IMG/VR virus record: IMGVR_UViG_3300049844_000277
Location: 36,520 to 100,519 of that record
Reading direction: 5' to 3' (one strand)
Source of the DNA: a virus
Length of the DNA stretch: 64,000 nucleotides
Shown: piece by piece, positions 11,751-40,398 of the stretch
How the letters are laid out: each line of letters begins with the position of its first letter
Position numbering within the stretch: position 1 is the stretch's first letter
The notes under the pieces: generated by a model
Seen by the model: the letters and a program-made list of their open reading frames with translations, nothing else
Databases searched by the model: none
What the model was told of the DNA's origin: nothing
Translations under genes and position numbers: made by a program

Positions 11751-12380
11751 TTAAGTACCGGCTCCACGGGAACCTCCTTCACAGAACATCATTCGCCGTA
11801 GGTCATCAGCATGCTGCTGGTCAGTAAGGACCATTTGCTCCAGCATGACCTTAAGCGACAAATTATCTCCGGCCATGTCTGACAGATGTCGTAACTCTTC
11901 AATCAATTGCTTCTCAGTTTGTAGAAGAGTCATGAAAATCTGGTGGAGGTCACTCATGTTCGGGATGACACCTACCTTAGGAATAGGTTCTCCGCCTAAC
12001 GCCGTAATCTTCATTGCGAGATGGTAGGCGTCCATCCGCTCTTCTTTGATGTGCTCTTTAAAGTGGTCGTAGATAACATCTCTAAAGTGCGCACGAATAC
12101 GATCGCCATAATTCATATACATGAAGATGATGGTATATTTGTAGCGCAGCAACTTATTACACTGAGCCACTACCTTATCCTGGGCAACCGCGAAGAATCC
12201 TTCCTCGGCCGATACAGCAAGAGGATGAGCACCAGCAGATGCTGTGGCAAGCGGAGGCATGGCGAACATCTCCTCCGTGTGCGGGGATGACTCCATTGTG
12301 TCCGCCATTGGACTGCTAGGAACTGGAAGACTCGAGCCACTCTCAGCCATGGAAGTACCCACTTTGTAGCGCTGCGTCAT
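11751..12380 (-). CDS. Dps/ferritin-like four-helix-bundle protein with ~70-aa N-terminal extension
   Basis: ...YMNYGDRIRAHFRDVIYDHFKEHIKEERMDAYHLAMKITALGGEPIP... and ...LLQTEKQLIEELRHLSDMAGDNLSLKVMLEQMVLTDQQHADDL... follow the Dps pattern (F..lH..f.e....d.iAERi.aLGG.P ... gD..t...l). Confidence 0.55.
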   Translation of the reverse strand: MTQRYKVGTSMAESGSSLPVPSSPMADTMESSPHTEEMFAMPPLATASAGAHPLAVSAEEGFFAVAQDKVVAQCNKLLRYKYTIIFMYMNYGDRIRAHFRDVIYDHFKEHIKEERMDAYHLAMKITALGGEPIPKVGVIPNMSDLHQIFMTLLQTEKQLIEELRHLSDMAGDNLSLKVMLEQMVLTDQQHADDLRRMMFCEGGSRGAGT

Positions 12381-15300
12381 GTACCCACCTCAACTCGAGT
12401 ATTGAGCGTAATCTCCCCGCGCTTATAGGCGGCGAGAGCTTCTTCTCTATTTTTGAAATGGCGTACTTTATCGTTCGCGGAACTCTCGGCTTTGGACGCC
12501 AAATGTACCCCAAGCATAGCTTCCATTCGTGGCGCTACCATCAAGCTATCTTTTTCACGGTCCGAGAATAGAAGGTTTGAGAGAGTCATCCCCTTCACTT
12601 CATCTATCGCGGGCTTCAGTACGGGAACGTGGATTTGGAATGTGTCCCAAACTACGAGGCCGTCGTTGACCGCGAAAATTTGTGTGTCAGGAACAATAAG
12701 GTCATAGACGGTTTCTTTTCTTAATACCTCGACCGACTCTACTAGATCCCAGGTAATTCCAACGTTCTCAACGATCCTTGCCCAAGCATCGACATCTGGT
12801 GTTTTGGCCGTCCGGAAAAAATGCAACATACGCCGAGCGTTTTGCCTCGTAACGTATGGAGCCTCTTTTCGTTTAGATCGTAGCGTAGCCAATGATGCGC
12901 AGAACGAACTATCTTCCGCGCACGGACCAGTACGGCTGGAGGCGAGGGTCATTAGATTTTTAGGAACAGGAACAATATCCACCTGATCCACAAGTTCATC
13001 AGCTTCTAGGAGGTTCAAAGCCTCCAAAGATTTAGAGTTGTTCCAAATTCCTCTACGAAGCCAGGACACGTTACGCTGGAGGTCTACGGTACTAATAGGT
13101 ATCGTATAAGCTACAGCTTTTTGGAGACGTCCCTCCTTCGGATATGCTTCGCTCACAGAACACCGGACGCCGATAGTTTGTAACAAAAAACGTAATGAAG
13201 CTGCTAACGCAGCAGACGACGTGTGAAGGGCGGCCATCACTTGAAGTTTTGCCTTACCGGCGCTGACAGTGAGTGTACCGTCACCGTTCAACATTCCGAT
13301 GAGCACACCCCACCGAGCCTCCTCAGACCAGTCCCCAAACGCTGGCACGCGTTTCGAGAGACAAGAGCGTCCGGGTACCCTCTCATCTAAGTAACAAGTC
13401 TTGAACAGCTCAACGCACTTCTGCGCACCACTAAAGTGGTCTTTGATACTTTGTCCTGTTATTCCGTTAGATGCGTCGTGTACCTCACGATACGTATTTC
13501 GCTTAATGAGCTTACCCTCAAACGCATTCACCGCGGCAGCAAAGCGTTCACGGTGCACGTCACTAACTTTCGTGTACCCGAAATAATGATCGGTTTCACC
13601 CAGTAAGAAACCGTCGGACAAGAATGCGCCGACCATCCATCCAAACTCAAAATCCCCCTGTGACCCCGTTAACGGTAAATGCCGCACAACCGGAGCTAAC
13701 TTTCCAACGGAATCCGAGGGCGCTGTTGCTTCGATCTGACCTGTTTCATGGTTATAAATACACAACGACTCATTCGTCGACGCCGTAACGCTTAAACCAC
13801 GACGCATTTCTACTTTCGCCACTTCGCATCCGTCTTCAATCGTAAGTCCTGTCACCGGGGACATTACTGATTTACTTGCGGAGTGGTCGTAAGAAAGAAC
13901 GCGAAAACCCTCCGGAACGGCGTAACTGCGAGCACCATTCTTGTCGATACTATAGGGCTCCTCAGCGTGTGGAATCTCTTGAAGCTCCGCTTCCACCAGC
14001 GCCTGTACCGCTGAGGTCCAACAAACACGAGTCTCTGCCGCGAATTTCATGGCTGTCTCCTTGGCTTCATCGCCAAGGAGCGCTTTACAAGCCGCACCTT
14101 CTGCTGTCAACACAACTTTCGTCGAACCCAAGAAACAGTTTCCATCGTAATCCGCATTGAAGCCAAGCTCTGCGAACGGATTTACGCGAATCGTCTTCCC
14201 CGCAACAGGGACGGCGTGAGCGCCAATAAACCCGTACCGGTGGAGAGTCGGAGCGCGATTCACCATCACCGGACGCTCCTTAATCTCCGCCATCAACGCG
14301 TCGTGCGCTGCCGGATGTTTCTTTTCCAACATCTCTTTCGCTTGAATGGCTCCGAAGCCGCGACGGATAAGGCGTGAGATAATAAACTTCCCGTACATGC
14401 CCCAAAGCATGTCTATCGGAATACCTATCTCATCCATGCTCAGAGAGCCGTCTGGAGCTATGGTTCCGCGGCCGGAGATATCTTGCTGCCGCTTCATTAT
14501 TCGTTTTTGGAAAAAGGAACTGTTCCCCGATACGGAAGGTTTACCGTTACGGCGAACAACTACAGTACCATTAGGGACTGTCACACAATACACGGTTCCT
14601 TTGTACGGGTACGCCTCGGTAAAAGAGCCCGACTCAATGGTGACATCAGAAAACCCCCGCACAGAAAAAAGATAATGCGGGAGATGGTGATCCTTAACTG
14701 GCGGACAAATTCCTCTAAAAATAACTTGGTAACCTATTTTTGCAGCGAGATGCTGTAGGTCATCAATTAATTGTAAACTAGCGGTACCGGCGTGAGCACT
14801 CAGCGGTTTACGCCGATAATGGGTTTTCGGGTTTTTCACGTTCTTCGCTAACGAAGGGTGAAGGGTTCCATCTCCACGCAGATATCCGCGCAATAATCCC
14901 TCTAACATAGCAGAAGGCCACGCTAAAATATCTGAAGATAAGTGTTTACTCTCGCACCCACGCCCGCAATGATGCGTTAACCAATCCGCCAGTGAGCGTA
15001 ACCTAATAGTCCACCAGATTACCTGGTATCCATCTTTACGCGTATATGTTTTGCGTACAAAGGGAATATCCAATTTTTTAAAGCACAAATCCACCGCGCG
15101 AACGTGTGGAGACGTTGCGGCTTGACACAAAGAAACCTGGGTTCCTGTTGTGGAAATCCAACCTTCCGCAATCCACCAACCTACAAACTCCGCAAAGGCC
15201 AAAGGATCTGGAGTAAATGTTCCTACTAAATTAGCCGTACGCCGTTTTTTGTTATCCGTAGAAACTTCACACGTATCTCCCGCGAAAACCAACTCCGGAA

Positions 15301-18300
15301 AAGTACCCTCCCACTCCTCAGCGCTAACCATTACCCTCCGGCGGTCCGTGCCTATAAAAGTATCCGCGCGTACCTTTTCCCACGGAGTCCAGACATAGAG
15401 CGCCTTACCGTTACTTACGCGCTTACGGCGATACGAGACTACATGTTCGTGGTTAGGTGTTACACATAAATCAAGTTCACGGCTGCGCGTATGTATCAGA
15501 TCTCCGTCGAACGGCATGGATACTAACGCGGTCGGCTTCTGCCATTCAAATTCCCGGGTGTCTAAGTTAACCGTAGCGACACGAGTTTTTCCGGTGTACT
15601 TAGAAAAACGAACCCACCCTTTTTCTGTAAGAATATCTGTTTGATCATCGTAACATTTTGGCGTAGTTTTCCCGGTAATATGCTCGAGAAATCCCTTTAC
15701 GTTTCTCTTTTGGAGTTTGGGGTTATCTGATTCGTGCGTACCAATCACGGCGCCTACCGCGTGAAACAAGTTCTGACGAAGCTTCGCTTGTTCATCCGGC
15801 GGAAGAATTGGAGATTCAATTTGCTTCCGTAATGACTGATTATGAAGGATAGCGCTTTGGTACAGGTAGTTCGAATCACCTACTACGAGCTCAGAGCCAC
15901 TCTTCCCCGGAAGAATGGGTCGCATTATTGGAGGAAGAACAGGCAACTTGGATAGGACGTACGCATCTCCCGGCTTGAGCTCCTGCCGATTCAGCGCCTC
16001 AAGGAACTTCAACTGCTTTACTGCGTCATCTAGCTTCGTACCGGAGAGCGACTTAATAGAGTTACGGAGCTCCGCGATACGCGCCTTAACGTCGATAGCG
16101 TTAAGCTTTTTCTTTACCGCAGCGCCACCATTCGTATGGTGATACTGGTCAAAATCTTTCGCGGTCATCCCCAGCAAGCGACGGGCAGGGTCGGCGAATA
16201 CAGGATTTACAACGGGCTCGGCGAGCTCAATGTGGCTCCACCGTGTTCCAGTGGTACCGCCAGTAACCGCGGGGTCAAACAATCCCCCACGTTCAGCGGC
16301 CAAATCTTTAGCGCGTACTAACTTCTCATTTTGTACTTCGCCAGATGACATCCGTAGAATGTCTTTATCGGTAAGCGGAGAGAGCGTGCTGATACTTCCA
16401 CGCGAATCAACTTTGACCCCTGCGCCATGCAGCATACCGATGAACTTGTCATAAACGAACGACGACTTGAGTGGAGGGAGAGGCAGTCCCAGCTGAATCG
16501 CCCGCCAGAACTCATCGTTCTTCTGGCTCTTAATAGCCGCCGTCTCTCGAAGCACGTTCCGCGCATTATGTGCAACGAGGGCATTGAACTCCATTTTACC
16601 GACGGCTTTCGCGCCTTCGTCACCGCCCTTAATTGGCTGCTGATTAACGTCGTACGCACCCGTACCGCGCGCGGCGTAGTTGGTCTCCGTGGTCTTAAAC
16701 AAGCGAAGTACGTATTGCGGCCCAACCAGGATTCCCGGAATCTTTTTACCCGACACAGGGTCTATCAGCGTTTCCTTGTCCTTGACCTTGTGCTCCTTCA
16801 GTAAATCCTTTGCCCACTGTACGTTGTCACGCCCTGAAAAGTTTTCAACGACAATAGGTTTACCGATTTTCTTGGCAACCTTAGCGACACACGTCTCTAG
16901 TATTTGCGACGGATTGATTCGGGAAATTACGCCAGCCGAGGTATACAAAACCTCAATCGGCTTACCCGTCTCATCTTGAAGCATCTTGTGATCGGGAACA
17001 ATAAGGGAAACAACGCCCTTGTTTCCGTGGCGTCCTGTGTTTCCGCACCATACTGATTTACCATTTCTGCGAACATACAAAACATGTCCAGGAACAGTTA
17101 CACAGTAAACTGGTGATTTGTACGAATCTACAAAACATTCCACCTGACCCTTCTGTCGTTTGATATGTCCATGATTCACAGTAGGTGTTAATTTCGAATT
17201 AATAATTCGTACCTGCCAATAATCACGACACCAAAAATCTTTACCTTTGATTGTTTGATACCCTTCAGCTTTCGCTAACGACACATTAGCAGCTTTACCA
17301 ATATGTAGTGCGAGACGCTGAACATCATCCGCCAAACGTTTGGATGTTGTTTTGTAGCATATCGGTTGGCCATTTTTAGTATGACCGTCACCCCACATCA
17401 ACCAGTTGAATAGCGTCTCTTGATCCGCTCGAGACCAAGCGAACACCTCAAGCGGGATAAATTTCTCGTAAGACTTACCGAACTGTTTAAAGTACTGCCA
17501 ATATTGCTTGGAATGAATACGAACCTTATCACCTGTGTCCGTGAATAAAATCCCTTCCTCACGAAGAAACTTTTCTAACTGTTTTCGATTTGGCTGATTA
17601 ATTTGCGTAATCTCTATGCCGTAAGTACCGGATTCTTCAATCGTAATGAGATTACCTTCAGATAAAAACGCACCGAGAAGAGCGGCTAAGGTTTTAGTCG
17701 GAAGCGCTTTATCATCTAAAACACGTAAACCCCGGCCCCCTTGTCCCGCGCGCACAGTTATCGAGTCAAATACAAACGACTCAGGAGAGTGCCCCACCCA
17801 AATCCCATCCTTCTTATAACTGACCCTTTTTCCTGCGATTTCATACGCCGGTAAAAGTTGGAAAGATTTCTCGTTGCGCGGTTGAACGTACATATGATGT
17901 CCGTCGGTCACAAACAAATCTACCTGTTGTGATTCGATGCGGTACATCCGTCCGCCTTCTGGATACGAATGAATTGCGTCGGGCTCTAGGTACTCGATAT
18001 TTTCGCCATTCTGTAACGTACAAATCTTATCCGTAATACGTACATCCGCTATCGGTTTCCACCCTTCCCACGTGAGAACCTCAGTCTCTGCATCATAACA
18101 GAGCTTGTCTCCGACGCGCATCGGCTCACGGGTCTTAACCGTTACAACGACACGCTTGTCCGTCACATAAACATCCATGACTTCACCTTCGAAGTCGTGG
18201 TCCCACGTACGAACAAGTTCCCGATACGGCGTAACTAACGTCTTCTTTAGGTTACCGAGAAGCGCATCAGACGCCGAAAGTTTACCTCGTGTGACTCCAG

Positions 18301-20887
18301 CGATGAGTATGTCGTGAGGCATAACCTTCATGCCCTTCTTCACGACACCATTGGGGTCAAGCTTACGATACTGCTCTGCGGTATACTTCGACCCGTAGTA
18401 CTGCTGATGGATATCCCTGCCAACCTTGGAGTCGCGATCTACTTCAACAACTTCCTTGTACATATGCTCTGACGTTAACTTCTCGGCGGCGCCAGAGGAG
18501 ATAACGACGGCATCGTTGGAGTTCATTCCGTAATACGGAACGTACCCTACCGTCATATTCGTACCGAGAGCGAAGGAACCGTTGCGGGTAAAATTAGACT
18601 CCGCGAGCGGCTGATCCGCTTCTACCTTATCACCAGGCTTCACCAGAATGTCGTGATGAAGGTGTGTCTTAGATGCGAACGGAAAATTATTCTCGTATGG
18701 AACCCGAATCAAATCTTTCTCAGCAGCTACCTTTTCCCGATTACGCTCGGAGAGGTAGTCCTCTTTAAACTCATCCCAGGTATACTCATCCATGGAACCG
18801 TAGCCCCAAGGAGGACCGTGCTTCTCGTAAGCGCTTTTAGCGGCCTCTTTGGAATCGAAGCCAAGCATGCACTTGTCTTCGTCGTGAGACCCATCCTTCT
18901 TGCGCTGATGTACGACGTAAACATTATCGAAAGAACCATCTTCCTTCAGATAAACGTCGACCGTTTCACCGTCGTCGCCGACGGTCTTAGGAATGTGTCC
19001 GTAGGCCACGGACATCTTCTTTTCCCACTTCTCTCCTTCGGCGTTAGTGCCGGTACGAATATCTCCCGGTTCAAGCTCAATCTTAACGAGCACACCTTGA
19101 ACAGTCTTTTGACGCTTGACCGCCCCGCCTCGTTTCTCGAAAGCGCTCTTCTCGCTTAAGAAATCTTCAGCGTGCTTCTTTCCGCTAGGGTCGATGTAGA
19201 TGTATTGCCCATCAACCTTCACTACTTTGCCCGCTACAGGTGCCGTAGGAAGAACCAGCCCCGCGAGCTCCTTCTCCCAGCTTGAATGCTCAACACCCTT
19301 CTCAGTCAACTTATTGGCGGCTGATTGTACAAGAGGTGCTTCGCGATGAACGAGAGGAAGGGCTTGTGTTTGAACCTTACCACCCATGATGGCACGGTTC
19401 CCCTGCATCGACTCAAGGAACGGGACAAGGTTAGTTGCCGGAGAATACAACTGAGCCACGTCGTACAACTGGTGAGTCACCTTTGCCGCTGGTACGTGCT
19501 CCAACTGCCCTTTGTTCATTGCGGTGACCATTCCCGTAAGCTTTTGCTTAGGGAACGCCACGACCGCCTCGGACATTTGAGCCGCAGACAGCATCTCATA
19601 CTTACCGGACTTAATGTTCTTAGCTGCGGTGTAGAGATTTCCCGTAGCATCCCGGTGCGCCATCATCGCCGTGCGAATATCAATACCAGCGCGGAAGGAC
19701 TCAGACGTACGAACGGGGTCCAGTATCCCTAGATGACTCGAATGAATAGTACGCGCTTCAGCGGGAATCGCGCGCTCATTCGGAATACCTCCTTCGCCGA
19801 GAGATGTAACACGCACAGCGTGGTCGATGGCCTCCATCGGGTTGATGTGCGTGGGAATCGAGCTCAGTTGTGAACCCGTAAGAAAACTTCGGATGCCGGG
19901 CGAAAAGGGCGACGAAGGAAGAATCGCACGGAGTTCAGTCTTATGTGTTGCGCGACCCTTTACCTTATTTGCCAGGGCACGTGCATCCAGCGTTATACGT
20001 TCCTTGATAAAATCGTCTACCGAATGATACGTCTTGAAACGTAAAGCGTCACGATCATCAGTATCCGCATTATCCCGGTACACCTGTAATAGCCGCTTCG
20101 ACGCAACGAGTAGTGCCTGCGGCGTAACCGATGAAAAAGCGTGCCCCAAGGTTTGTTGGTTAACCTCGGGATCCATAGACGTAACAGCGTAAGCTGCTCG
20201 AATAGCATCAAGCTGTGTCTCAGGATTAGTCGCAGCACGTTTAGCCGGATGCACTACTTTCTCGTAAAGCTTATTCAAATGCTTATCGTGCTTACCTTCG
20301 AAAGCCGCCTCATTTTGATGAGCGACATCCGAGCCCCAATGAGTAGAAATATCAGCGTGCGGAACGCCTAATTTTCGAAGTACGGGGTAAAGCGGAATAG
20401 ATGTCGTCCCATACTCGATGTATGGATGTCCTTGGGCAGGGTCTAACGAAAGTCGAAAATTGGTTCCCTTCGACAAGTTAAAGGCGGCCTCTAGTTCCTC
20501 ATTTCCACGTCGCCGCGTATAGACGCCAGGCTTGAGCCGAAGTTGATTTGATACGTTGTACTCGTTACCGTCCAAAATAAAAGTATGCCGTCCTGTGAAA
20601 TAAGGAAGACTCAATAACGTAAAGTTCTTAACTTTCTCAACTTCTTTACCGGAAGCATCACGTAGTGTGACGGTTCCTTTTATCGGCTCAGAAAGAGAAC
20701 CACCGCTCAATAGCGCGTGCTTTTGATCGTTTGGGCCAAAGTCCTTTTCATGGACCTTCAGGTCACTGACCTCAATACTCTTATCCCGCAATGTCAGTGG
20801 AAAAGCGTTTCGCAACGCATCGAGCGCCTTTGCACGAATTTGAACTCGACGGGACTCGGCATCGGTAAGCACGGGAGTGAGCGACAT
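12377..20887 (-). CDS. rpoBC: DNA-directed RNA polymerase beta subunit fused to the N-terminal half of beta', interrupted by three inteins
   Basis: Beta motifs: FILDGNEYNVSNQLRLKPGVY, GEGGIPNERAIPAEARTIHSSHLGILDP, GNRAIMGGKVQTQALPL, VGDKL|TGRHGNKGVVS, GKMEFNALVAHNA. In the same frame follow beta' motifs: RWSHIELAEPVVNPVF, LPVLPPIMRPI, VNRAPTLHRYG, FNADYDGN|TFQIHVPV. Removing the three inteins (354+378+498 aa) leaves about 1606 aa. Confidence 0.9.
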   Translation of the reverse strand: MSLTPVLTDAESRRVQIRAKALDALRNAFPLTLRDKSIEVSDLKVHEKDFGPNDQKHALLSGGSLSEPIKGTVTLRDASGKEVEKVKNFTLLSLPYFTGRHTFILDGNEYNVSNQLRLKPGVYTRRRGNEELEAAFNLSKGTNFRLSLDPAQGHPYIEYGTTSIPLYPVLRKLGVPHADISTHWGSDVAHQNEAAFEGKHDKHLNKLYEKVVHPAKRAATNPETQLDAIRAAYAVTSMDPEVNQQTLGHAFSSVTPQALLVASKRLLQVYRDNADTDDRDALRFKTYHSVDDFIKERITLDARALANKVKGRATHKTELRAILPSSPFSPGIRSFLTGSQLSSIPTHINPMEAIDHAVRVTSLGEGGIPNERAIPAEARTIHSSHLGILDPVRTSESFRAGIDIRTAMMAHRDATGNLYTAAKNIKSGKYEMLSAAQMSEAVVAFPKQKLTGMVTAMNKGQLEHVPAAKVTHQLYDVAQLYSPATNLVPFLESMQGNRAIMGGKVQTQALPLVHREAPLVQSAANKLTEKGVEHSSWEKELAGLVLPTAPVAGKVVKVDGQYIYIDPSGKKHAEDFLSEKSAFEKRGGAVKRQKTVQGVLVKIELEPGDIRTGTNAEGEKWEKKMSVAYGHIPKTVGDDGETVDVYLKEDGSFDNVYVVHQRKKDGSHDEDKCMLGFDSKEAAKSAYEKHGPPWGYGSMDEYTWDEFKEDYLSERNREKVAAEKDLIRVPYENNFPFASKTHLHHDILVKPGDKVEADQPLAESNFTRNGSFALGTNMTVGYVPYYGMNSNDAVVISSGAAEKLTSEHMYKEVVEVDRDSKVGRDIHQQYYGSKYTAEQYRKLDPNGVVKKGMKVMPHDILIAGVTRGKLSASDALLGNLKKTLVTPYRELVRTWDHDFEGEVMDVYVTDKRVVVTVKTREPMRVGDKLCYDAETEVLTWEGWKPIADVRITDKICTLQNGENIEYLEPDAIHSYPEGGRMYRIESQQVDLFVTDGHHMYVQPRNEKSFQLLPAYEIAGKRVSYKKDGIWVGHSPESFVFDSITVRAGQGGRGLRVLDDKALPTKTLAALLGAFLSEGNLITIEESGTYGIEITQINQPNRKQLEKFLREEGILFTDTGDKVRIHSKQYWQYFKQFGKSYEKFIPLEVFAWSRADQETLFNWLMWGDGHTKNGQPICYKTTSKRLADDVQRLALHIGKAANVSLAKAEGYQTIKGKDFWCRDYWQVRIINSKLTPTVNHGHIKRQKGQVECFVDSYKSPVYCVTVPGHVLYVRRNGKSVWCGNTGRHGNKGVVSLIVPDHKMLQDETGKPIEVLYTSAGVISRINPSQILETCVAKVAKKIGKPIVVENFSGRDNVQWAKDLLKEHKVKDKETLIDPVSGKKIPGILVGPQYVLRLFKTTETNYAARGTGAYDVNQQPIKGGDEGAKAVGKMEFNALVAHNARNVLRETAAIKSQKNDEFWRAIQLGLPLPPLKSSFVYDKFIGMLHGAGVKVDSRGSISTLSPLTDKDILRMSSGEVQNEKLVRAKDLAAERGGLFDPAVTGGTTGTRWSHIELAEPVVNPVFADPARRLLGMTAKDFDQYHHTNGGAAVKKKLNAIDVKARIAELRNSIKSLSGTKLDDAVKQLKFLEALNRQELKPGDAYVLSKLPVLPPIMRPILPGKSGSELVVGDSNYLYQSAILHNQSLRKQIESPILPPDEQAKLRQNLFHAVGAVIGTHESDNPKLQKRNVKGFLEHITGKTTPKCYDDQTDILTEKGWVRFSKYTGKTRVATVNLDTREFEWQKPTALVSMPFDGDLIHTRSRELDLCVTPNHEHVVSYRRKRVSNGKALYVWTPWEKVRADTFIGTDRRRVMVSAEEWEGTFPELVFAGDTCEVSTDNKKRRTANLVGTFTPDPLAFAEFVGWWIAEGWISTTGTQVSLCQAATSPHVRAVDLCFKKLDIPFVRKTYTRKDGYQVIWWTIRLRSLADWLTHHCGRGCESKHLSSDILAWPSAMLEGLLRGYLRGDGTLHPSLAKNVKNPKTHYRRKPLSAHAGTASLQLIDDLQHLAAKIGYQVIFRGICPPVKDHHLPHYLFSVRGFSDVTIESGSFTEAYPYKGTVYCVTVPNGTVVVRRNGKPSVSGNSSFFQKRIMKRQQDISGRGTIAPDGSLSMDEIGIPIDMLWGMYGKFIISRLIRRGFGAIQAKEMLEKKHPAAHDALMAEIKERPVMVNRAPTLHRYGFIGAHAVPVAGKTIRVNPFAELGFNADYDGNCFLGSTKVVLTAEGAACKALLGDEAKETAMKFAAETRVCWTSAVQALVEAELQEIPHAEEPYSIDKNGARSYAVPEGFRVLSYDHSASKSVMSPVTGLTIEDGCEVAKVEMRRGLSVTASTNESLCIYNHETGQIEATAPSDSVGKLAPVVRHLPLTGSQGDFEFGWMVGAFLSDGFLLGETDHYFGYTKVSDVHRERFAAAVNAFEGKLIKRNTYREVHDASNGITGQSIKDHFSGAQKCVELFKTCYLDERVPGRSCLSKRVPAFGDWSEEARWGVLIGMLNGDGTLTVSAGKAKLQVMAALHTSSAALAASLRFLLQTIGVRCSVSEAYPKEGRLQKAVAYTIPISTVDLQRNVSWLRRGIWNNSKSLEALNLLEADELVDQVDIVPVPKNLMTLASSRTGPCAEDSSFCASLATLRSKRKEAPYVTRQNARRMLHFFRTAKTPDVDAWARIVENVGITWDLVESVEVLRKETVYDLIVPDTQIFAVNDGLVVWDTFQIHVPVLKPAIDEVKGMTLSNLLFSDREKDSLMVAPRMEAMLGVHLASKAESSANDKVRHFKNREEALAAYKRGEITLNTRVEVGT
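12644..14137 (-). mobile_element. Intein 3 (498 aa, LAGLIDADG type) inside the catalytic NADFDGD-type motif of beta'
   Basis: Junctions are FNADYDGN|CFLGSTKVVLTAEG... and ...VYDLIVPDTQIFAVNDGLVVWD|TFQIHVPV. Dodecapeptide motifs are MVGAFLSDGF and LIGMLNGDGT. The C-terminus is atypical (Trp-Asp instead of His-Asn). Confidence 0.75.
14522..15655 (-). mobile_element. Intein 2 (378 aa, LAGLIDADG type) in beta' N-half
   Basis: Junctions are ITGKTTPK|CYDDQTDILTEKGW... and ...VVVRRNGKPSVSGN|SSFFQKRIMKR. The site corresponds to the bacterial LLGKRVDYSGRS region. Dodecapeptide motifs are FVGWWIAEGW and LRGYLRGDGT. Confidence 0.8.
17039..18100 (-). mobile_element. Intein 1 (354 aa, LAGLIDADG homing-endonuclease type) in beta, inside the GDK..GRHGNKG motif
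   Basis: Junctions are VGDKL|CYDAETEVLTWEGW... and ...LYVRRNGKSVWCGN|TGRHGNKG. Dodecapeptide motifs are LLGAFLSEGN and WLMWGDGH. Confidence 0.85.
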
Positions 20888-22362: not shown

Positions 22363-25300
22363 TTATACAGGCTGATTTTGTTGCGCCATTTGCGCCTTCG
22401 CCTGCTGTCCTTGTTGGTTCTGAAGATCTTCCAGGCGTTGAATGACAACCGCATGCATCACAGCGTCTTCCTTACTTAAGCTATCCAACTGTGAACGCCT
22501 AGAACCAACATCCAGCCCCATGAGCTGCTGCACTATCTGGTCAGCCTGCGCGATGACCGCCTGCTGGTCGTAGTTGAGCCCAGGAGTACCTTGAGCCTGT
22601 AGCTGAACCTGCTGGGACAAGTTATTCTGTAGTTTTCGTAGCTCATTCTGGACGCGCTGATTGTGCCGCGCCTCATCAAGAGTTTCTTGTAGACGCTTCT
22701 CTCGTTCTGCGTCCAAATCAATGTCGAGTCGCTCTAGTATGGTAGTCATTGAGACGTACGAGGGACCCGCTTGCCCGGTAGCCATGCTGAGCAGTAATTG
22801 TTTAGACTCAGTGTCATCGACCATCTTCAAAGGCGTAAGTTTCGCCTCTATCTTCTCCCAGCCAAGATACCGGGACATCTGGTCGCTGTACCACTGTAGT
22901 AGGTCATTCATATCATCCGCGTGCCCTTGCGTTTGATTCTGAATGAGCCGGAGAGTTGCCTCCATGCCTGCTTTAGTTAGTCCACCGTAGAGGAACTCCT
23001 GCGGAATACCTAACGCAGCCATAATGCTCTTCTCAGCTTCTTGAAGCTCACCGAGCGTTAACATCGCCCGTCCATCGCCACCAAGATTGGATACACCAAG
23101 AGCTACTGGTGCCATCATTATGTGTAAGGGGTCACGTCGCCAGCGACGAATATTTTGTTTCATTTCATCTTGCCAACGCGCAAGAGAAATCATTTGCGTA
23201 AAATCTTGCTGTCCGTTTTGTGCGGGATGCAAGATACGCATTGGCACGACGTGCTCCAGCGCGATCGAATTTTTAGTAGCCCCACCCGCGATACAAAACG
23301 TGGAATCCTCCGCGATCTTGAAGTCAATGTATTGTTCCTCTTCCGACTCCTCTACCACGCTCACTCTCGCCGCAAAATAATCTTTCCAGAAAAAGCCACT
23401 CTTGCCGATGGTAATCTCTTCCGCATCCTCCCAATTCCATAGCGCGTAAAGCCGCTCTTGGGACGCACCGCTAACCCGTACGTGGTAACTCGGTCCGTTT
23501 GGGGTAATAACACGCCCATCAGCAAGCGCGTGAATCGGGGTAATGTGCTCACGAATCGTCGCAATACATCCTACGTGAAGGAGCATACGGTAAACATCAT
23601 ACGCAAGGCCCGCACTGGAGGTGGCGAGAGTATCTTGCCCTTCCCGCGTGTGACCATCCGCCTCCCAGAGACCTTTCAAGAATGCGAGCTTTACAGAATC
23701 CGGCGCATGAAATACTTCCGAAGGAACGCGCTTAACGCGCGCGGTTCCCGGAACCATGCCCTTGATGAGAGCCTTCACAATCACATCACACAAGGTAACC
23801 ATGCTACAGTTACCTCTCTGATTGTATCCACCGCACTCCAAGCCAAACTCTCGCCGAATTGCTTCCCGGAGGGGCTCTTCCGTCTTACTGCCCATCGCAA
23901 TCATAACGGTACGCTGGTTACAGGAACCATTTCCAACGTAATGCCCGAGGATATACGCGAAGTCCTCTGTCATCGGGCGCGTCGCGGGGAGGCGTTTTGG
24001 AACGGACCCTTCTTTCAGCTTCCTACGCGCAATCTTCCCAGGGACTCCCTTCACATGCTCACCGGCGCTCTCCGCCTCAAACGCCTGCGCGGAGGGTAAT
24101 GACATCGCGCTGTAAACGTAATTCTCGGTGTTCGCGAAACCGGTGTACTTAGCAACATCTACCTGCTGCGGCTCCGACGGAATTGTCCGGGGGTAGAGGA
24201 TATAATCACCCTTCTCGAACTGTTCCGCGGGACACATCACCTCTTCGTACAAATGCGGATTCTGAAGAATCTCCGACGACGTCTGCTTGTCTTTCGTATC
24301 CGACCGACGTGCGTCGCTTGTCCGTCGAAGGGTAAGGATGGGATGGTGCGGGGAAAATACCCCGCTGAGATGCCGAAGCCCCGAAAGCGTAATACGGCAT
24401 CCGATTTCATCATCCTTCGCATCCCGATACCACTTCTGCTCGACTGGACGCCACCGCCCGAGGTGTGTTCTCACCAAGTCGCCAACACGTACATCATCCG
24501 CGGGCACGAGACCGGTAGACGTCTCAATGAGTGTATCGAGACTGACGCACTCGTTCGCCTTCCTTAGCGTCATGGTGTAGAGGAAGAGCTTGATTGTCGA
24601 CGCAAGCGGAGGAAATCCCCACTGCTGGTCAATACCCGAAGGACTTGGAACCTTGATATGAAAAAGAGCGTCCTTCTCAAAACGAAACGTCTTGTTGTCT
24701 CGAATGTTTTCCAAGAACTCCATAGGCATCGAATTAATAAGATGCTTTGACCCCGATTTAACTTGGTCCTTAACGTCCTGCGGGATGTTATAGTAGTATA
24801 CAGATTGTCCCGTAATCGGATTGTAATCTATATCCATTAGCTTGGGATCCCACCGAATAATATGGACCCGGCTAGCAGCTAGAATCTTACGGTCAACGAC
24901 TGTACCACGCACATCTCGCTTGCAATGCAGGCAGTGGTAGGTGAAAGCCAGCGATTTCAGCTCAAACTTGTAATCAGTGTGCTGAATAGCAACGAGTTGC
25001 TGACAACTAGGACACTTCAGACTACGAACGAACGGCTTATAAATTGATGTAAAATGATTGCCATATATGTGCTTATCGAGCGACGCCATGAGAAGCGCAC
25101 TCTTAATCTTCAAAGTTTTTTCAAAAAGACGGCGATAGTTGCGCCGGAGTGCTTCATTCGATGTTCCGTACTCGAGGTCAGTTACGACGAGCTCTCCAAA
25201 TTTACGCAGAGCCGCGTAAACATGTGCACTATTATACATCAAATATTCGCACCATTTAAAGAGATCTTTTAGCTTTCTTGGTACAAAACCCGTTAGGAAG

Positions 25301-25374
25301 TCATGTGCAGGGTTTGGGTGTGAAGCCGCCCGGTCAAAAACGGACATTGTATCAGTGTTAGGAAGGTCAGCCAT
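22363..25374 (-). CDS. Portal-like protein interrupted by an intein
   Basis: The extein is about 576 aa. N-terminal Zn-ribbon-like CPSCQQ...CLHCKR. The central part reads ...EKSIMAALGIPQEFLYGG.... The long Gln-rich helical C-terminus is reminiscent of podovirus portal barrels. It is the first gene of the large minus-strand block. The assignment is tentative. Confidence 0.45.
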   Translation of the reverse strand: MADLPNTDTMSVFDRAASHPNPAHDFLTGFVPRKLKDLFKWCEYLMYNSAHVYAALRKFGELVVTDLEYGTSNEALRRNYRRLFEKTLKIKSALLMASLDKHIYGNHFTSIYKPFVRSLKCPSCQQLVAIQHTDYKFELKSLAFTYHCLHCKRDVRGTVVDRKILAASRVHIIRWDPKLMDIDYNPITGQSVYYYNIPQDVKDQVKSGSKHLINSMPMEFLENIRDNKTFRFEKDALFHIKVPSPSGIDQQWGFPPLASTIKLFLYTMTLRKANECVSLDTLIETSTGLVPADDVRVGDLVRTHLGRWRPVEQKWYRDAKDDEIGCRITLSGLRHLSGVFSPHHPILTLRRTSDARRSDTKDKQTSSEILQNPHLYEEVMCPAEQFEKGDYILYPRTIPSEPQQVDVAKYTGFANTENYVYSAMSLPSAQAFEAESAGEHVKGVPGKIARRKLKEGSVPKRLPATRPMTEDFAYILGHYVGNGSCNQRTVMIAMGSKTEEPLREAIRREFGLECGGYNQRGNCSMVTLCDVIVKALIKGMVPGTARVKRVPSEVFHAPDSVKLAFLKGLWEADGHTREGQDTLATSSAGLAYDVYRMLLHVGCIATIREHITPIHALADGRVITPNGPSYHVRVSGASQERLYALWNWEDAEEITIGKSGFFWKDYFAARVSVVEESEEEQYIDFKIAEDSTFCIAGGATKNSIALEHVVPMRILHPAQNGQQDFTQMISLARWQDEMKQNIRRWRRDPLHIMMAPVALGVSNLGGDGRAMLTLGELQEAEKSIMAALGIPQEFLYGGLTKAGMEATLRLIQNQTQGHADDMNDLLQWYSDQMSRYLGWEKIEAKLTPLKMVDDTESKQLLLSMATGQAGPSYVSMTTILERLDIDLDAEREKRLQETLDEARHNQRVQNELRKLQNNLSQQVQLQAQGTPGLNYDQQAVIAQADQIVQQLMGLDVGSRRSQLDSLSKEDAVMHAVVIQRLEDLQNQQGQQAKAQMAQQNQPV
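23269..24549 (-). mobile_element. Intein 4 (427 aa, LAGLIDADG type) in the portal-like gene
   Basis: Junctions are TLRKANE|CVSLDTLIETSTGLV... and ...STFCIAGGATKN|SIALEHVVP. Dodecapeptide motifs are ILGHYVGNGS and LKGLWEADGH. Confidence 0.8.
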
Positions 25375-34128: not shown

Positions 34129-34167
34129 CCGCACGAGCTACTCGTGCCCACAACCCGAGGAGCTCTC

Positions 34168-37100
34168 ATGGAGAAGCCCGCAGAAATCTGCAGCGGATGT
34201 CCTCGAGAAATCGAGACAGAGACCCATCCCTACGGTTATGTTGAATCGTGGATTGATTCAAACGCCGAACTCATCATCATAGCGGAAGCTCCTGTCTGCG
34301 ATCGCCACGGTAACGTTCCTAGCTCTTTCGACGATGACAGCGGTAAAATCATTCGAACCGCCGTATCCGAGCTACGTAACTTACCTTCGCACAGTAAGCT
34401 AGCGGTCTCGTATACGTACGCAGTACTCTGTACAAGCAACCAGGGCGACAAAGACCCCGAAAAAGCCGTACTGCAACGGTGCCGTACGCTGCTCCAAGCT
34501 GACTTACGTCGCGCAAACAAGAACGCCGTCCTGCTGGTAATGGGTATGTCTGCCCTTCGCGCACTAGAAATAAAAGCCGCGAAGTTGAAGGACATGCAGG
34601 GGCGATTACTCCAAAAGCAGAAAATTGGAGAAGGTGATGACGCTCCGATATTCGATGTCGTCGTAACCGTCTCGACAAAACAGTTGTTCGCGATGCCGGG
34701 AATCTACACGACGTTCGTAGCGGACCTGCGACGAGCTGCGGACGCTGCGAGCGCAGGTGGATTAACACACGTTACCCCACTCGAAAAACTAACCGAAAAA
34801 TACGTAATCCCGAAAACAATCGAAGAAGTACGCCAAATCTGTCGCGAAATACTGAATTATCAAGAAGGTAAAGTATCTGCAGATAACTGGCCTATCTCTG
34901 TAGACACCGAGACAAACACCAAGTTTCCACACCGAGAAAACTTGAAAGTATTGGCGGTGTCCTTCGCATGGGCGGAGGGTAAAGCTACTGCAATTCCATT
35001 AGAGCACCCCACTACACCCTACGCGTACCAAGACGCGATACCGTACGTACGCGAAGTCTTAGCGAGCAAGAAGCCGAAGTTCCTTCATAATGCTAAGTTC
35101 GACCTTAAAGTCTTCATGAAAGCGGGCTGGCCGATTAACGGGTTCGCTTGGGATAGCATGCTAGGGGAACATGCTCTCGAAGAAGATAAAAAGGGACAGT
35201 ACGGATTAAAGCAGTTGACCCGTACTTTCTTCCCGGAATTCGCGACATACGCCGACTCTCTTCAAGAAATGCTCACGCACGAAGAGGGCGACTCGCAGCT
35301 CGACAACCTGAGGAAAGCGCCAAAAGCTTCAACTTCGAAAGATGGGGGATTTGAAAGTATCCCACTTCCCACGCTATTGCTTTATGCGGCAGTCGATGCA
35401 GATATGACACGGCGGCTAGTGTTACTGCAGGAAAAAAGAATTACCGACGAGCAGAACAGAGTAATCGTAGAAACGAATATAACGAAGAGAGAGCAGGCGC
35501 TGGCGATTTCGGCGAGGAAGAAAATACGGCTGAGAATTGCGCCGCTACATAGTGAGACGGAGATGTTGAAGAAGTACATGGTGCTCTACCCCGTCCCAGA
35601 ACTCTGTTCCGCTGATAAGCCGGTAAGACAACTAGTACTGAACAACGTATTCCCCGTTACCCCAGCTCTCGCGAGAATGGAGTTTAAGGGCATACGGATA
35701 GACAGACCGTACCTAACTACGTTGCGTGAAGCGTTGGGAAAAGTCGTCACAGAAACCGCTGCAGAGCTACAGGATATGGCGGGCAGAGAGATAACTCTCA
35801 ATAGTCCGGCAGAGATAGCTGAAATCCTGTTCAACAGCGGGTTTATACATCCAACAACTCACGCCCCCACGACTTATCCCCTCACAGGCATCGGTAAGAC
35901 AAAAACGGGACAGATACAAACCACCGAGAAAGTGATGCAGTACTTGGTGGCGAAGTATCAGTGCCCCTTTGCAGCTAAAAAACTAATCTACGCCAAGGCA
36001 TATAAAGCGAAAAATACGTTCTGTCAGAATGTGTGGGATCTCTCGGAGCTCGACGGGTATCTACACACGAACTACAACCAGCACGGCACAAATTCGGGTA
36101 GACTGTCCTGTGTCGCGGGAGAAACCGTACTAGATACTAATTACGGAAAAATCGAGATACAGAATCTCGATCTGGAGAAGATGCCGGGGATTACCATCCA
36201 GACCCACGAACTCCGCGAACAACCGATTCTACGTAAAATAGAAAAAGGCATTGAAGAAATGTTCGAGGTCGAACTCGAAGACGGGCGCACCATCACCGTG
36301 ACTAAAAAACATCGCTTCTTGACGCCGACGGGGTGGAAACGACTCGAGGAACTGTCAGAAAATGCCGAAATACTCTGCGCCGCCTCCGTGGGTAGTGGAC
36401 CAAATATGCGACTCGTTACAACCCGGATAAAAAGCATACGTCCCGTAGGTCCTAAGAAAGTCTGGGACCTCACAGTAGCGGTCGATCACTCTTACATCGC
36501 CCACGGATTTGTTAACAAAAATTCCAACGATGAAAACATGCAAAACATCCCCAAGAAATTGGCGGGTGTTAACATTAAGAAAGTGTTCCTCCCGGACGAT
36601 GATTCGTATGTCTTCGTCAACGCTGATGCGAAGGGTGCCGAAGTACGAATCCTAACCGCCTACTGCCGAGACCAAGCGCTCATACAATCGCTCAACGCGG
36701 GGCAGGACACGCATTGTTTCATCGCGTCCAAGATTGTTGAAATCGTACGTCAGAGTCCTGGTGCAACGGCGGTTCTCGGAAGCATGAATCTAAGCGATGA
36801 GTATCCTCTGACGTACGAAGACTTCGCGGCTAGAGACAAGCTAAAAGAAACCAATAGTAAGTACGGGGCGATGCTCGACAAATTCAGAACCGCTGTCAAA
36901 CGCGTAGTGTTCGGTATTCTGTACGGCGCCGGTCCTCAGAAAATTGCGGAAACTATTGGTATCAGTCTAGAGCAAGCACAACAGCTCATTCACACTCTGT
37001 TCGCTTTGTTTCCGTCCATCAAGACGTACATGGCGCAGACAAAGTGGGAACTACAACAATTTAATTTAGTCGAAACGTTCTTCGGTAGACGCCGTAGATT

Positions 37101-37527
37101 TAGTGTATCGGGAGCGCCGAAGTATCAAATAGGGAGAGCTGAACGTCAGACAGTTAATTTTAAAATCCAAAGCACAAGCTCTGATATCGTAATGGGACGA
37201 TTACTAGCAATCGAAGAACCTCTCAAAGATTTGGGAGGTAGACTTCTATTGACAGTGCACGACAGCCTTGGGTTTCAAATCAAGAAAAAATATATCCGAC
37301 AGCTACCTGATTTCATTTATACGTATTTGGAGAAGGGTGCAGCAGACGCCCATCCATGGCTCCCAGTCGCATTTAAATGGGACTACGAAGTTGGGTCATC
37401 ATACGGCGAACTCAAATCACTGGAATCCTACCTTGCCAACACGAAAATAGAGGAATACTCGAACGATGCCTACGTCGCCGAGGCTTTCACAGAAGAAGAC
37501 GCAAGAACCTCCCTCTCCGAACCCTGA
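34168..37527 (+). CDS. polA: Family-A DNA polymerase with N-terminal UDG-family-4-like domain and 3'-5' exonuclease domain, interrupted by a mini-intein
   Basis: UDG-like: LIIIAEAPVCDRHGNVPSSFDDDSGKII. Exo I/II/III: SVDTETN, HNAKFDLKVF, YAAVDADMT. Pol motif A: VFVNADAKGAEVRIL; motif B: RTAVKRVVFGILYGAG; motif C: LTVHDSLGF. ATG 34168 follows GAGGAG; the track ORF begins at GTG 34144. Confidence 0.9.
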   Translation: MEKPAEICSGCPREIETETHPYGYVESWIDSNAELIIIAEAPVCDRHGNVPSSFDDDSGKIIRTAVSELRNLPSHSKLAVSYTYAVLCTSNQGDKDPEKAVLQRCRTLLQADLRRANKNAVLLVMGMSALRALEIKAAKLKDMQGRLLQKQKIGEGDDAPIFDVVVTVSTKQLFAMPGIYTTFVADLRRAADAASAGGLTHVTPLEKLTEKYVIPKTIEEVRQICREILNYQEGKVSADNWPISVDTETNTKFPHRENLKVLAVSFAWAEGKATAIPLEHPTTPYAYQDAIPYVREVLASKKPKFLHNAKFDLKVFMKAGWPINGFAWDSMLGEHALEEDKKGQYGLKQLTRTFFPEFATYADSLQEMLTHEEGDSQLDNLRKAPKASTSKDGGFESIPLPTLLLYAAVDADMTRRLVLLQEKRITDEQNRVIVETNITKREQALAISARKKIRLRIAPLHSETEMLKKYMVLYPVPELCSADKPVRQLVLNNVFPVTPALARMEFKGIRIDRPYLTTLREALGKVVTETAAELQDMAGREITLNSPAEIAEILFNSGFIHPTTHAPTTYPLTGIGKTKTGQIQTTEKVMQYLVAKYQCPFAAKKLIYAKAYKAKNTFCQNVWDLSELDGYLHTNYNQHGTNSGRLSCVAGETVLDTNYGKIEIQNLDLEKMPGITIQTHELREQPILRKIEKGIEEMFEVELEDGRTITVTKKHRFLTPTGWKRLEELSENAEILCAASVGSGPNMRLVTTRIKSIRPVGPKKVWDLTVAVDHSYIAHGFVNKNSNDENMQNIPKKLAGVNIKKVFLPDDDSYVFVNADAKGAEVRILTAYCRDQALIQSLNAGQDTHCFIASKIVEIVRQSPGATAVLGSMNLSDEYPLTYEDFAARDKLKETNSKYGAMLDKFRTAVKRVVFGILYGAGPQKIAETIGISLEQAQQLIHTLFALFPSIKTYMAQTKWELQQFNLVETFFGRRRRFSVSGAPKYQIGRAERQTVNFKIQSTSSDIVMGRLLAIEEPLKDLGGRLLLTVHDSLGFQIKKKYIRQLPDFIYTYLEKGAADAHPWLPVAFKWDYEVGSSYGELKSLESYLANTKIEEYSNDAYVAEAFTEEDARTSLSEP
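36109..36522 (+). mobile_element. Intein 5 (138-aa mini-intein, no endonuclease domain) in DNA polymerase
   Basis: Junctions are TNSGRLS|CVAGETVLDTNYGKI... and ...HSYIAHGFVNKN|SNDENMQNIPK. The spliced sequence restores the PolA (T/S)GRLSS....QNIP motif. Confidence 0.8.
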
Positions 37528-38793: not shown

Positions 38794-40398
38794 TTACGCG
38801 TAGAATTTCAGGTCATTAGACACAAGCTTATGTGCAAACCATCCGAACAGTTGTGCATGAAGACAATCGTCAGGTAATTGGGGACTGTGTCGCCAAACCT
38901 TTTTACCTGACGACGTAACTTCTTCATAGACGTTCAGAATATCTTTAATCGCTTCACGTGATTCTTCTCGTGGCGGATATACAACCGAACCCCGCTTCAG
39001 AAACATGAGATAGTTATCAATCATCGTCGTGCGGTCAGCGAGATACCTGTCCAAGCCATTGTGCTTTATCGGCTGACCTAACGCTCCGTACTGCATCATG
39101 TGCACGCGGTGAGCGCCTAGACGGTCTCGTAGCGTCGCATTAGGTAGTGCGCCTTCGCCAGCGTCACCGATGACCATCGCAACAGCGTAATGCTGGCAAA
39201 TCGCAGCGATATTCTCGACATCTGCGACGGCGTTGCTTCCTGGGTAAATTCGGAAGTAGAGCGTACGTAACTTCTGTGTTGCGGGATGAAAGCCCCACAC
39301 CCATAGGACCGTACGGCTAACGCCCGTCGTTCCGCCGCCCGACCAATCAACGCCGGCAACAGTAATCGAACAGCCTTCCAAATTTTTACCTGGCGTAGGG
39401 GATATCTGGGGGCCTGTGCACAGTGCTTCGAGCTCCTCCAGTGAAATAAGTCTACGACCTACGGCATCTGATACACCCAAGACCTCATTGCGGAACTTAG
39501 CCGCGGAAAACATGTCATGGTCACGGAGGATATCATCCCAACGCGCCTGAGCGTCCTCGACTGCACTCGGCTTTTCGGGCGTATTTTTTACACACGACGG
39601 GATGTTCAGCGGCATAATCAATTGAGAAATGTGAAAGCCTTTAATGGAGTGTTTTCCAGTACCCTTGTCGGCAATACGCATATCGATCCACTGCCCTGCG
39701 CGGGGATTTAAAACCTTCCCACAATTAAGACAAATGGGGCCGTGTTTACCGAGAGACTTCTCACTAATAACGAAGTTGTATTTACTACACCCCTCGCACT
39801 TCATCACCCATTCGCTCTGAGAAGACTGATCCCACAAAAATTGAATGGAGTTCTCCATAGTTTTCGGAGTTCCGGCGTAAGTTTCGAACCGGTACGCGGA
39901 ATTCTTCATACACGCCAAAATTACGGGAATGACACTGTCGTATAATACGTCCTGTACTTCGTCAAACAAACAACGGTCAGCGGAAAAACCACGCGCACGA
40001 TCCGCGTCATCGGTCGCGTACGTGAACCCGTTCTCTGACCCGTTCGTATACGACCGATGTAATACGCGATCCGCGTGATCTGGAGATAAGAAGTATTTCT
40101 TAATCAACGGCGAATACGACAATGTTTTACCAACACGCGTGTTAGAGAACAAGAGAGTTTGCTCGCGTGAAGGACTGGAATAGTAACTCTTGAAAAATGG
40201 GCGAGAAACAGATTCAGATATAATAAAGTTAGCCAGAGATGTGCTTTTACTGACCTGACGCGCAGTCATCAGAAGCGTCGATTTATAACCTCCGTCATAT
40301 ATCGATTTGAAAAATGGATAGTCTGTAAGACTAAAGGGAGCGCCGTCTAGCCATAATAGACGCTCAGCCACTTCCGAAAGACGTTTACTTCCAATCAC
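38794..40398 (-). CDS. terL: Terminase large subunit
   Basis: N-terminal ATPase with deviant Walker A (LMTARQVSKSTSL) and Walker B (DRCLFDEVQD). C-terminal RNase-H-like nuclease acidic motifs (VAGVDWSGGG, MVIGDAGEG). Zn-ribbon CEGCSK...CLNCGK. GTG start. Confidence 0.65.
   Translation of the reverse strand: MIGSKRLSEVAERLLWLDGAPFSLTDYPFFKSIYDGGYKSTLLMTARQVSKSTSLANFIISESVSRPFFKSYYSSPSREQTLLFSNTRVGKTLSYSPLIKKYFLSPDHADRVLHRSYTNGSENGFTYATDDADRARGFSADRCLFDEVQDVLYDSVIPVILACMKNSAYRFETYAGTPKTMENSIQFLWDQSSQSEWVMKCEGCSKYNFVISEKSLGKHGPICLNCGKVLNPRAGQWIDMRIADKGTGKHSIKGFHISQLIMPLNIPSCVKNTPEKPSAVEDAQARWDDILRDHDMFSAAKFRNEVLGVSDAVGRRLISLEELEALCTGPQISPTPGKNLEGCSITVAGVDWSGGGTTGVSRTVLWVWGFHPATQKLRTLYFRIYPGSNAVADVENIAAICQHYAVAMVIGDAGEGALPNATLRDRLGAHRVHMMQYGALGQPIKHNGLDRYLADRTTMIDNYLMFLKRGSVVYPPREESREAIKDILNVYEEVTSSGKKVWRHSPQLPDDCLHAQLFGWFAHKLVSNDLKFYA

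Follow-up and report, generated by a model that had tools for sequence, protein, structure and literature searches.

A putative LAGLIDADG intein in the portal protein gene of a large uncultivated tailed phage

The 64-kb stretch of viral DNA analyzed here (hereafter the window; positions 36,520 to 100,519 of the IMG/VR record IMGVR_UViG_3300049844_000277) contains a predicted portal protein gene that is interrupted, in frame, by a segment of 427 codons. This arrangement raises the questions of whether the segment is a self-splicing intein, whether the interrupted protein is indeed a portal, and whether the element is still able to move. The segment is very probably a class 1-type self-splicing intein with an embedded LAGLIDADG endonuclease domain, residing in the portal gene of an uncultivated tailed phage that is large (~170 kb) and has a multisubunit RNA polymerase of its own; splicing is what its residues predict. 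Both the intein and the portal gene lie on the minus strand, and all coordinates given below are window positions. The parts of the locus, with a slash marking the junction, are as follows.

22363..25374, minus strand: portal protein precursor gene, 1003 codons and a stop, with the N-extein, intein, and C-extein in a single frame forming an uninterrupted open reading frame (ORF)
24550..25374, minus strand: N-extein, portal residues 1–275, ending in ...LRKANE
23269..24549, minus strand: putative intein, 427 residues, precursor residues 276–702, CVSLDTLIE...FCIAGGATKN, with a stop-free translation
22366..23268, minus strand: C-extein, residues 276–576 of the spliced product, starting with Ser+1 (SIALEHVVP...)
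Intein-free (empty) insertion site, a consensus derived from the conservation analysis: AAGGCGAACGAG/GCCATCGCGCTCGAGCAC, also given as CGCAAGGCGAACGAG/GCCATCGCGCTCGAGCAC
Predicted tryptic junction peptide of the spliced product: ANESIALEHVVPMR

Boundaries and splicing motifs of the insertion

The region 23269..24549 is open only on the minus strand (CVSLDTLIETSTGLVPADDVRVGDLV ... EDSTFCIAGGATKN, 427 codons) and is flanked by the residues ...LYTMTLRKANE and SIALEHVVPMR.... The Met1 start of the precursor is backed by the conserved N-terminus of the homologues (MAD..D.MS.F). A preliminary description of this DNA had placed the element at exactly these coordinates, with the correct length, end residues, and flanks, and had left its strand unstated. 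With the spliced 576-residue sequence as a query, 660 homologues were found, and the best 120 of them, nearly all 570–613 residues long and at most 89% identical over the full length, were examined for the insertion. In the alignment with intein-free homologues (52–89% identical, 570–600 residues), one clean gap corresponds to exactly the 427 residues and falls between the invariant LRKANE and (A/S)IALEH. The segment is missing from 117 of the 120 homologues, its carriers being P0001 (the window sequence called from Met10), P0011, and P0012, and it was found in none of the best 80 IMG/VR loci. By these comparisons, the 427-residue segment is a true insertion, far beyond chance.

An intein-free allele, P0009, is present on 31 contigs of up to 182 kb. 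Compared with the spliced form of P0012, which bears the intein, it has only three differences in 579 residues, namely S276A and I277V (positions +1 and +2) and N490S; this near-identity shows a recent and precise gain or loss of the intein. Among the 117 intein-free homologues, the +1 residue is Ala in 109 and Ser in 6, whereas it is Ser in all three of the intein-bearing ones. The insertion junction ranks first of 564 for conservation (mean entropy, ±6 residues), and the guanine-plus-cytosine content is 54.6% in the intein versus 48.2% in the extein.

The splicing blocks were assigned by alignment with P0123, a canonical intein in a cellular 2-oxoacid oxidoreductase.

24175..24549, minus strand: N-terminal splicing region, from a sub-cutoff match to Hint_2 and the alignment with P0123
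24472..24549, minus strand: block A (Cys1, CVSLDTLIET..G), from the alignment with P0123
24331..24363, minus strand: block B (GVFSPHHPILT), from the alignment with P0123
23269..23436, minus strand: C-terminal splicing region, blocks F and G
23287..23334, minus strand: block F (QYIDFKIAEDSTFCIA), without the block F His

In block B, SPHHP is aligned with TPDHP of P0123, so that Ser replaces Thr while the His is kept. Block F (YIDFKIAEDSTF) shows EDSTF where the His is expected from the same alignment, and block G reads GGATKN, with a penultimate Lys and a terminal Asn, followed by Ser+1. The Pfam domain LAGLIDADG_3 (PF14528) is matched above its cutoff (E = 6e-12), a phmmer search matches the endonuclease domains of TliVMA and PI-PkoII, two inteins of solved structure (best E = 4e-6), and the NCBIfam matches are confined to the intein parts of models for intein-containing proteins. 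An AlphaFold2 (AF2) model of the intein (8-row alignment; mean predicted local distance difference test (pLDDT), 56) was used only for its overall match to solved inteins and for no residue-level claim; this low-confidence model aligns over the full length to TliVMA (3e-11), PI-SceI, PI-PkoII, and PhoVMA (E, 3e-11 to 2e-7), and I-DmoI is also among the matches. The earlier proposal of a LAGLIDADG intein is thus borne out by Cys1, the Ser-x-x-His of block B, the terminal Asn, Ser+1, the LAGLIDADG_3 domain, and the matches to solved inteins.

Conservation among alleles at the same site is in line with this assignment. All 10 complete sequences have Cys1 and also keep the S-x-x-H-P of block B, the terminal Asn, and a +1 nucleophile; in the same-site inteins of diverged portals, the +1 residue is Ser or Cys in 11 of 11. 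Between two other close alleles, L002 and L003, the ratio of nonsynonymous to synonymous substitution rates (dN/dS) is 0.08 for the whole intein, with dS >1, and synonymous sites are saturated between the window and L002/L003.

Several observations weigh against the assignment. The Pfam Hint_2 profile covers only residues 1–53 of the intein and stays below its threshold (E = 2.4e-4; 21.9 bits vs a cutoff of 28.4), and the C-terminal splicing region of the AF2 model (last 50 residues) is unreliable with a pLDDT below 50. Both of the His residues that normally assist Asn cyclization, in block F and at the penultimate position, are missing here, and the latter position is occupied by Lys. Phage inteins with penultimate Gly, Lys, or Ser have been documented, and splicing was demonstrated for one that has Gly (Kelley et al. 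2016, PMC5050341), so that the Lys is not disqualifying.

The absence of the two His residues, together with the altered endonuclease active site and the sub-threshold Hint profile, could be taken to mean that the element is a decayed intein, incapable of splicing, that stays in the portal as a permanent additional domain. This is very improbable, however, in that all the residues essential for the three splicing steps are kept across alleles with saturated synonymous sites, Ser+1 tracks the presence of the intein, and near-identical intein-free alleles exist; moreover, the insertion splits the most conserved segment of a ring-forming protein, where a 427-residue domain is hard to square with assembly. 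Three other readings were rejected: the continuous frame and the intein junction residues speak against a group I intron or a free-standing endonuclease gene, Cys1 and the Asp, not Cys, at position 4 of block F against a class 3 intein, and the endonuclease domain and the +1 nucleophile against a bacterial intein-like (BIL) domain.

As a self-splicing intein, the segment would be released in the manner usual for class 1. An N–S acyl shift at Cys1 would form a thioester with Glu-1, Ser+1 would take over the N-extein by trans-esterification, cyclization of Asn427 would free the 427-residue intein, and a final O–N shift would join the exteins to give a 576-residue portal subunit reading ...LRKANE-SIALEH....

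Portal identity of the host protein and position of the site

The sequence searches gave little help in naming the host protein, and weigh against its being a portal: the spliced extein, used as a single sequence and as a 59-sequence profile, had no significant match in Pfam, PHROGs, or PDB sequences, and PHROG 64 'portal' was hit only with E = 0.015. Because the profile searches yielded nothing usable, the portal call was drawn from a fold search and from tblastn. An AF2 model of the extein (59-sequence alignment) has a pLDDT of 70, with high confidence for residues 70–240 of the N-extein. In a Foldseek search of the PDB, the top 50 matches of this model are all portals (E ~3e-7; probability, 1.0), including those of HFTV1, G20c, 812, T4, lambda, P74-26, and 80alpha, and among the viral models of BFVD the best match is Gp14 of Bacillus phage G (E = 1e-17), followed mostly by annotated portals. 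In tblastn against isolated phages, the extein is 31% identical to gp204, a 'portal protein', of Salmonella phage Arash (E = 2e-78), with further matches in three Vibrio phages and to the phage G portal (E = 9e-8). The local gene order in Arash is identical, consisting of the portal, a small gene, and a fused beta/beta' RNA polymerase gene; a literature search on 'Salmonella phage Arash' returned nothing. The identification of the host protein as a portal is therefore supported, resting on the predicted fold and on homologues annotated by others, and the earlier description of the gene as portal-like is supported by the fold matches of the modeled spliced extein and by tblastn to annotated portals.

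It might still be argued that the host is some other large phage protein, given that its extein lacks a significant Pfam, PHROG, or PDB sequence match and that the gene lies amid transcription and replication genes, ~13 kb from the large terminase subunit. That the protein is anything but a portal is nevertheless extremely improbable. The top 50 fold matches in the PDB are all portals, and so are nearly all the named viral-model matches, with a probability of 1.0; homology links the extein to the portals annotated in Arash and phage G; and the elements of the model follow one another in a portal-like succession, with an alpha/beta N-terminal part leading into a long helix, a short strand, and another helix, and then a Gly-rich loop, a further long helix, and C-terminal helices. 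A separate, intein-free gene (38794..40398) encodes the large terminase subunit. For annotation, the true portal would be the 576-residue spliced product, which gene callers and profile searches missed, the source call being 'hypothetical protein'.

Two invariant elements stand out in the exteins.

24922..25014, minus strand: four invariant Cys (CPxC...CxxC), residues 121–151 of the N-extein
23047..23088, minus strand: invariant GGDGRA loop, within the C-extein

Cys121, Cys124, Cys148, and Cys151 are invariant in 59 sequences, in the arrangement KCPxC...(23 residues)...CxxC, and the profile weakly resembles the bL33 zinc ribbon (E = 2.1). The four Cys residues probably form a zinc ribbon inserted in the portal, which would be unusual for portals. 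The GGDGRA loop is probably the tunnel loop, and the C-extein also holds a C-terminal coiled coil.

In the extein model, residues 275/276 are near the end of a 28-residue helix (255–282); after it come a short strand, another long helix, the invariant GGDGRA loop, and a helix of 37 residues. According to the usual portal topology, we read the two helices around the short strand as the descending and ascending stem helices, the strand as the clip, the GGDGRA loop as the tunnel loop, and the last helix as the long wing helix. The insertion site would accordingly be located in the predicted stem helix just before the clip; it counts against this placement that it was read from a monomer model rather than a structural alignment. 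An extra 427 residues in this helix should keep a ring-forming subunit from assembling, and the precursor is unlikely to enter the dodecameric ring, so that procapsid assembly and DNA packaging would probably depend on prior splicing, as the preliminary description had proposed for the capsid.

Endonuclease domain, homing, and distribution of the intein

The endonuclease domain is located between the two splicing regions.

23437..23994, minus strand: LAGLIDADG homing-endonuclease domain, from Pfam LAGLIDADG_3 and the TliVMA and PI-PkoII alignments
23923..23961, minus strand: LAGLIDADG motif 1, FAYILGHYVGNGS, with Asn at the catalytic Asp/Glu position
23650..23688, minus strand: LAGLIDADG motif 2, LAFLKGLWEADGH, with the Asp kept

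The window and both close alleles share LGHYVGNGS as motif 1 (Asn in 3 of 3), and motif 2 (LWEADGH) is intact. In the same-site relatives outside the window's clade, motif 1 is GDG, with Asp, in all seven that are readable, and the Asn is on this ground regarded as a derived loss. Asp-to-Asn replacement at the corresponding position abolishes cleavage in PI-SceI (D218) and I-CreI (D20N). With the first active-site acid replaced by Asn, homing is probably impaired in the window's clade. The dN/dS of the endonuclease domain between L002 and L003 is 0.06 (dS >1; range reported, 0.03–0.08), and ongoing purifying selection on this domain could come from splicing-coupled folding, DNA binding, or nicking.

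The same selection can be read differently, as the mark of an endonuclease that is fully active and of an intein still spreading by homing, if the Asn of motif 1 is tolerated or if a nickase stimulates gene conversion. The presence/absence polymorphism between near-identical portals, in which the only nearby changes are those at +1 and +2 (a possible signature of co-conversion or resistance), and the sporadic distribution (3 of 120 close homologues and 0 of 80 IMG/VR loci) would fit such active spread. However, equivalent Asp-to-Asn changes are established to abolish cleavage in PI-SceI and I-CreI, the outside relatives keep Asp, which makes the Asn a derived loss, and recombination with the intein-free allele explains the polymorphism equally well. 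Active homing is thus unlikely, although it is the alternative to be taken most seriously. In our preferred reading of impaired homing, the intein belongs to a lineage that holds the same portal site in many diverged relatives, and it would probably persist by vertical inheritance and by recombination between co-infecting phages. A compact natural system for the late part of the homing cycle is offered by the near-identical pair of alleles, one with the intein and one without it, and by the loss of a catalytic residue in this clade.

The broken endonuclease site, the purifying selection on the whole element, and the location in the channel-forming core of the portal also suggest a more speculative idea, namely that the intein has been co-opted as a post-translational timer or switch, with assembly of the portal ring, and hence procapsid initiation, awaiting conditional splicing. 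We regard this co-option as improbable. If it were true, the presence of up to four inteins in the same 275-residue portal core would reflect selection, and not tolerance alone.

Relatives of the intein at the same site were seen by an exhaustive HMMER scan, the word-indexed homologue search having under-reported them (3 proteins). At E≤1e-3, the scan with the intein gave 2208 cluster representatives, 26 of which reached E≤1e-30, and 42 of the best 149 are homologues of this portal family (local hmmsearch with the extein profile). In these portals, inteins are found at no fewer than five sites, at profile positions ~105, 278, 303, 327, and 378; position 278, with at least 16 representatives, is the site in the window. 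P0151 (2007 residues) has three inteins, and P0172 (2405 residues) has three insertions, one of which, by its size of 913 residues, suggests two inteins, making four in this protein; P0158 and P0167 are further portals in this set. Four of the five sites are within a 100-residue stretch that starts at the stem helix, takes in the clip, and extends as far as the predicted tunnel loop and wing helix. As far as the predicted inteins go, the portal genes of this environmental phage lineage form a hot spot of intein insertion, in which five sites or more are used and a single gene can carry up to three or four inteins. As a general rule, inteins occupy the parts of essential proteins that are most conserved and contact nucleic acids, and the repeated targeting of the channel-forming portal core fits that rule. 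The lineage matches the metagenomic 'mReC' phages encoding a beta/beta' RNA polymerase, in whose description inteins are not mentioned (PMC7481178).

One same-site intein, in a diverged portal, contains an in-frame TAG (L165:2998-3000; contig Ga0180431_10000032, 178,259 bp). It is at a codon that is Gln (CAG) in the window and splits the gene call into 391 and 712 residues, which could mean that the gene has become a pseudogene, that sequencing introduced an error, or that TAG encodes Gln.

The same-site inteins (P0151–P0166, P0121, and P0122) interrupt the portal at the same point, ...K[AS][NQ]E/C ... N/[SC][IV]A[LM][ED]H, have the same block architecture, and are 35–60% identical to the intein of the window. 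They differ from it in keeping the Asp of motif 1 and, in some cases, in ending with the canonical His-Asn, and several of the portals carry two to four inteins, at sites ~105, 303, 327, and 378. In the solved inteins TliVMA and PhoVMA (7QSS, 7QSU, and 7QST), PI-SceI (1VDE and 1LWT), and PI-PkoII (2CW7), splicing regions likewise surround two LAGLIDADG motifs, but the identity is only 13–17%, and the portal intein is unlike them in having Asn for Asp/Glu in motif 1, Lys for the penultimate His, no block F His, and Ser for Thr in block B.

Portal inteins have been described in actinobacteriophages, with six in cluster C1 mycobacteriophages (Kelley et al. 2016, PMC5050341) and five polyphyletic groups in PhagesDB (bioRxiv 10.1101/2025.01.02.630785). 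The initial view of a portal insertion as less common holds in that such insertions are uncommon, but they are not new (PMC5050341; bioRxiv 10.1101/2025.01.02.630785), and the present intein is a new example rather than a new kind. The actinobacteriophage inteins are similar in bearing LAGLIDADG domains in the portal gene of tailed phages, and a non-canonical penultimate residue, Lys included, is reported to be common in phage inteins. In contrast, their portals are of another family, as tblastn of the window extein finds no actinobacteriophage, and the lineage of the window is environmental, ~170–200 kb in size, and RNA polymerase-encoding. The inteins of the large terminase subunit TerL (phiCbK, PMC3556154; crAss-like phages, PMC7886860) also interrupt an essential component of head assembly and packaging, but in a different host protein, the terminase gene of the window (38794..40398) being intein-free. 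The present case brings a lineage other than actinobacteriophages into the short list of portal inteins. What it adds to the known picture is confined to the multi-site hot spot and the altered endonuclease, and the current understanding of inteins or portals is unchanged.

Other inteins and genes in the window

The window carries at least five inteins within its 64 kb. Those outside the portal gene, and the gene that holds three of the insertions, are as follows.

12377..20887, minus strand: fused beta/beta' RNA polymerase ORF, 2836 residues, with three insertions relative to Arash gp206
17039..18100, minus strand: RNA polymerase intein, 354 residues, C...GN/T, canonical-looking
14522..15655, minus strand: RNA polymerase intein, 378 residues, C...GN/S, canonical-looking, absent from the L002 homologue
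12644..14137, minus strand: third, intein-like insertion in RNA polymerase, 498 residues, located within the catalytic NADFDGD motif and having both LAGLIDADG motifs intact
36109..36522, plus strand: DNA polymerase mini-intein, 138 residues, CVAGETVL...FVNKN/S, in the family A DNA polymerase gene 34144..37527

The mini-intein of DNA polymerase matches Pfam Intein_splicing exactly at the cutoff (35.8 bits) and has, in common with the portal intein, a penultimate Lys (Lys-Asn/Ser).

The third insertion in RNA polymerase reads NADYDGN/CFLGS...GLVVWD/TFQIHVP in the window, whereas 82%-identical intein-free homologues read NADYDGD/TFQIHVP. On a canonical reading, the last two residues of the insertion are Trp and Asp, and splicing would leave the enzyme with Asn where the third metal-binding Asp should be; the arrangement at this active-site insertion is the same in L002. 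Relatives were found by a scan of viral contigs with a two-sequence alignment, a single-sequence scan having given none, and ~35 of 78 related RNA polymerase loci (the IMG/VR relatives L085–L118 and L136) have an insertion at the same point of NADFDGD, at locus position ~1000–1030. The 15 insertions that are readable end to end are ~400–525 residues long and occur in two forms. The first begins with Ser or Cys at position 1 and ends with Trp, Tyr, or Gln before Asp, followed by Thr or Cys, while the second begins with Gln or Glu and ends with Ser-Asn, followed by Thr. This second form lacks a position-1 nucleophile, has Asp and not Cys at position 4 of block F, and is always preceded by the catalytic Asp. 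To our knowledge, this form fits none of the described intein classes, and from its residues, it would either not splice or splice in an undescribed way. A literature search for an intein at NADFDGD found nothing.

Within the beta part of the RNA polymerase ORF, residues 590–709 match the Pfam domain 'InPase' (inorganic pyrophosphatase; E = 1.6e-32), a domain that is also called in the L002 and P0009 contigs. A gene for a ferritin-like protein (11751..12380, minus strand) is located between the two RNA polymerase genes, an arrangement kept in the L002 and P0009 contigs. On the plus strand, a reverse transcriptase gene (47331..48467) matches Pfam RVT_1 (E = 2.4e-14).

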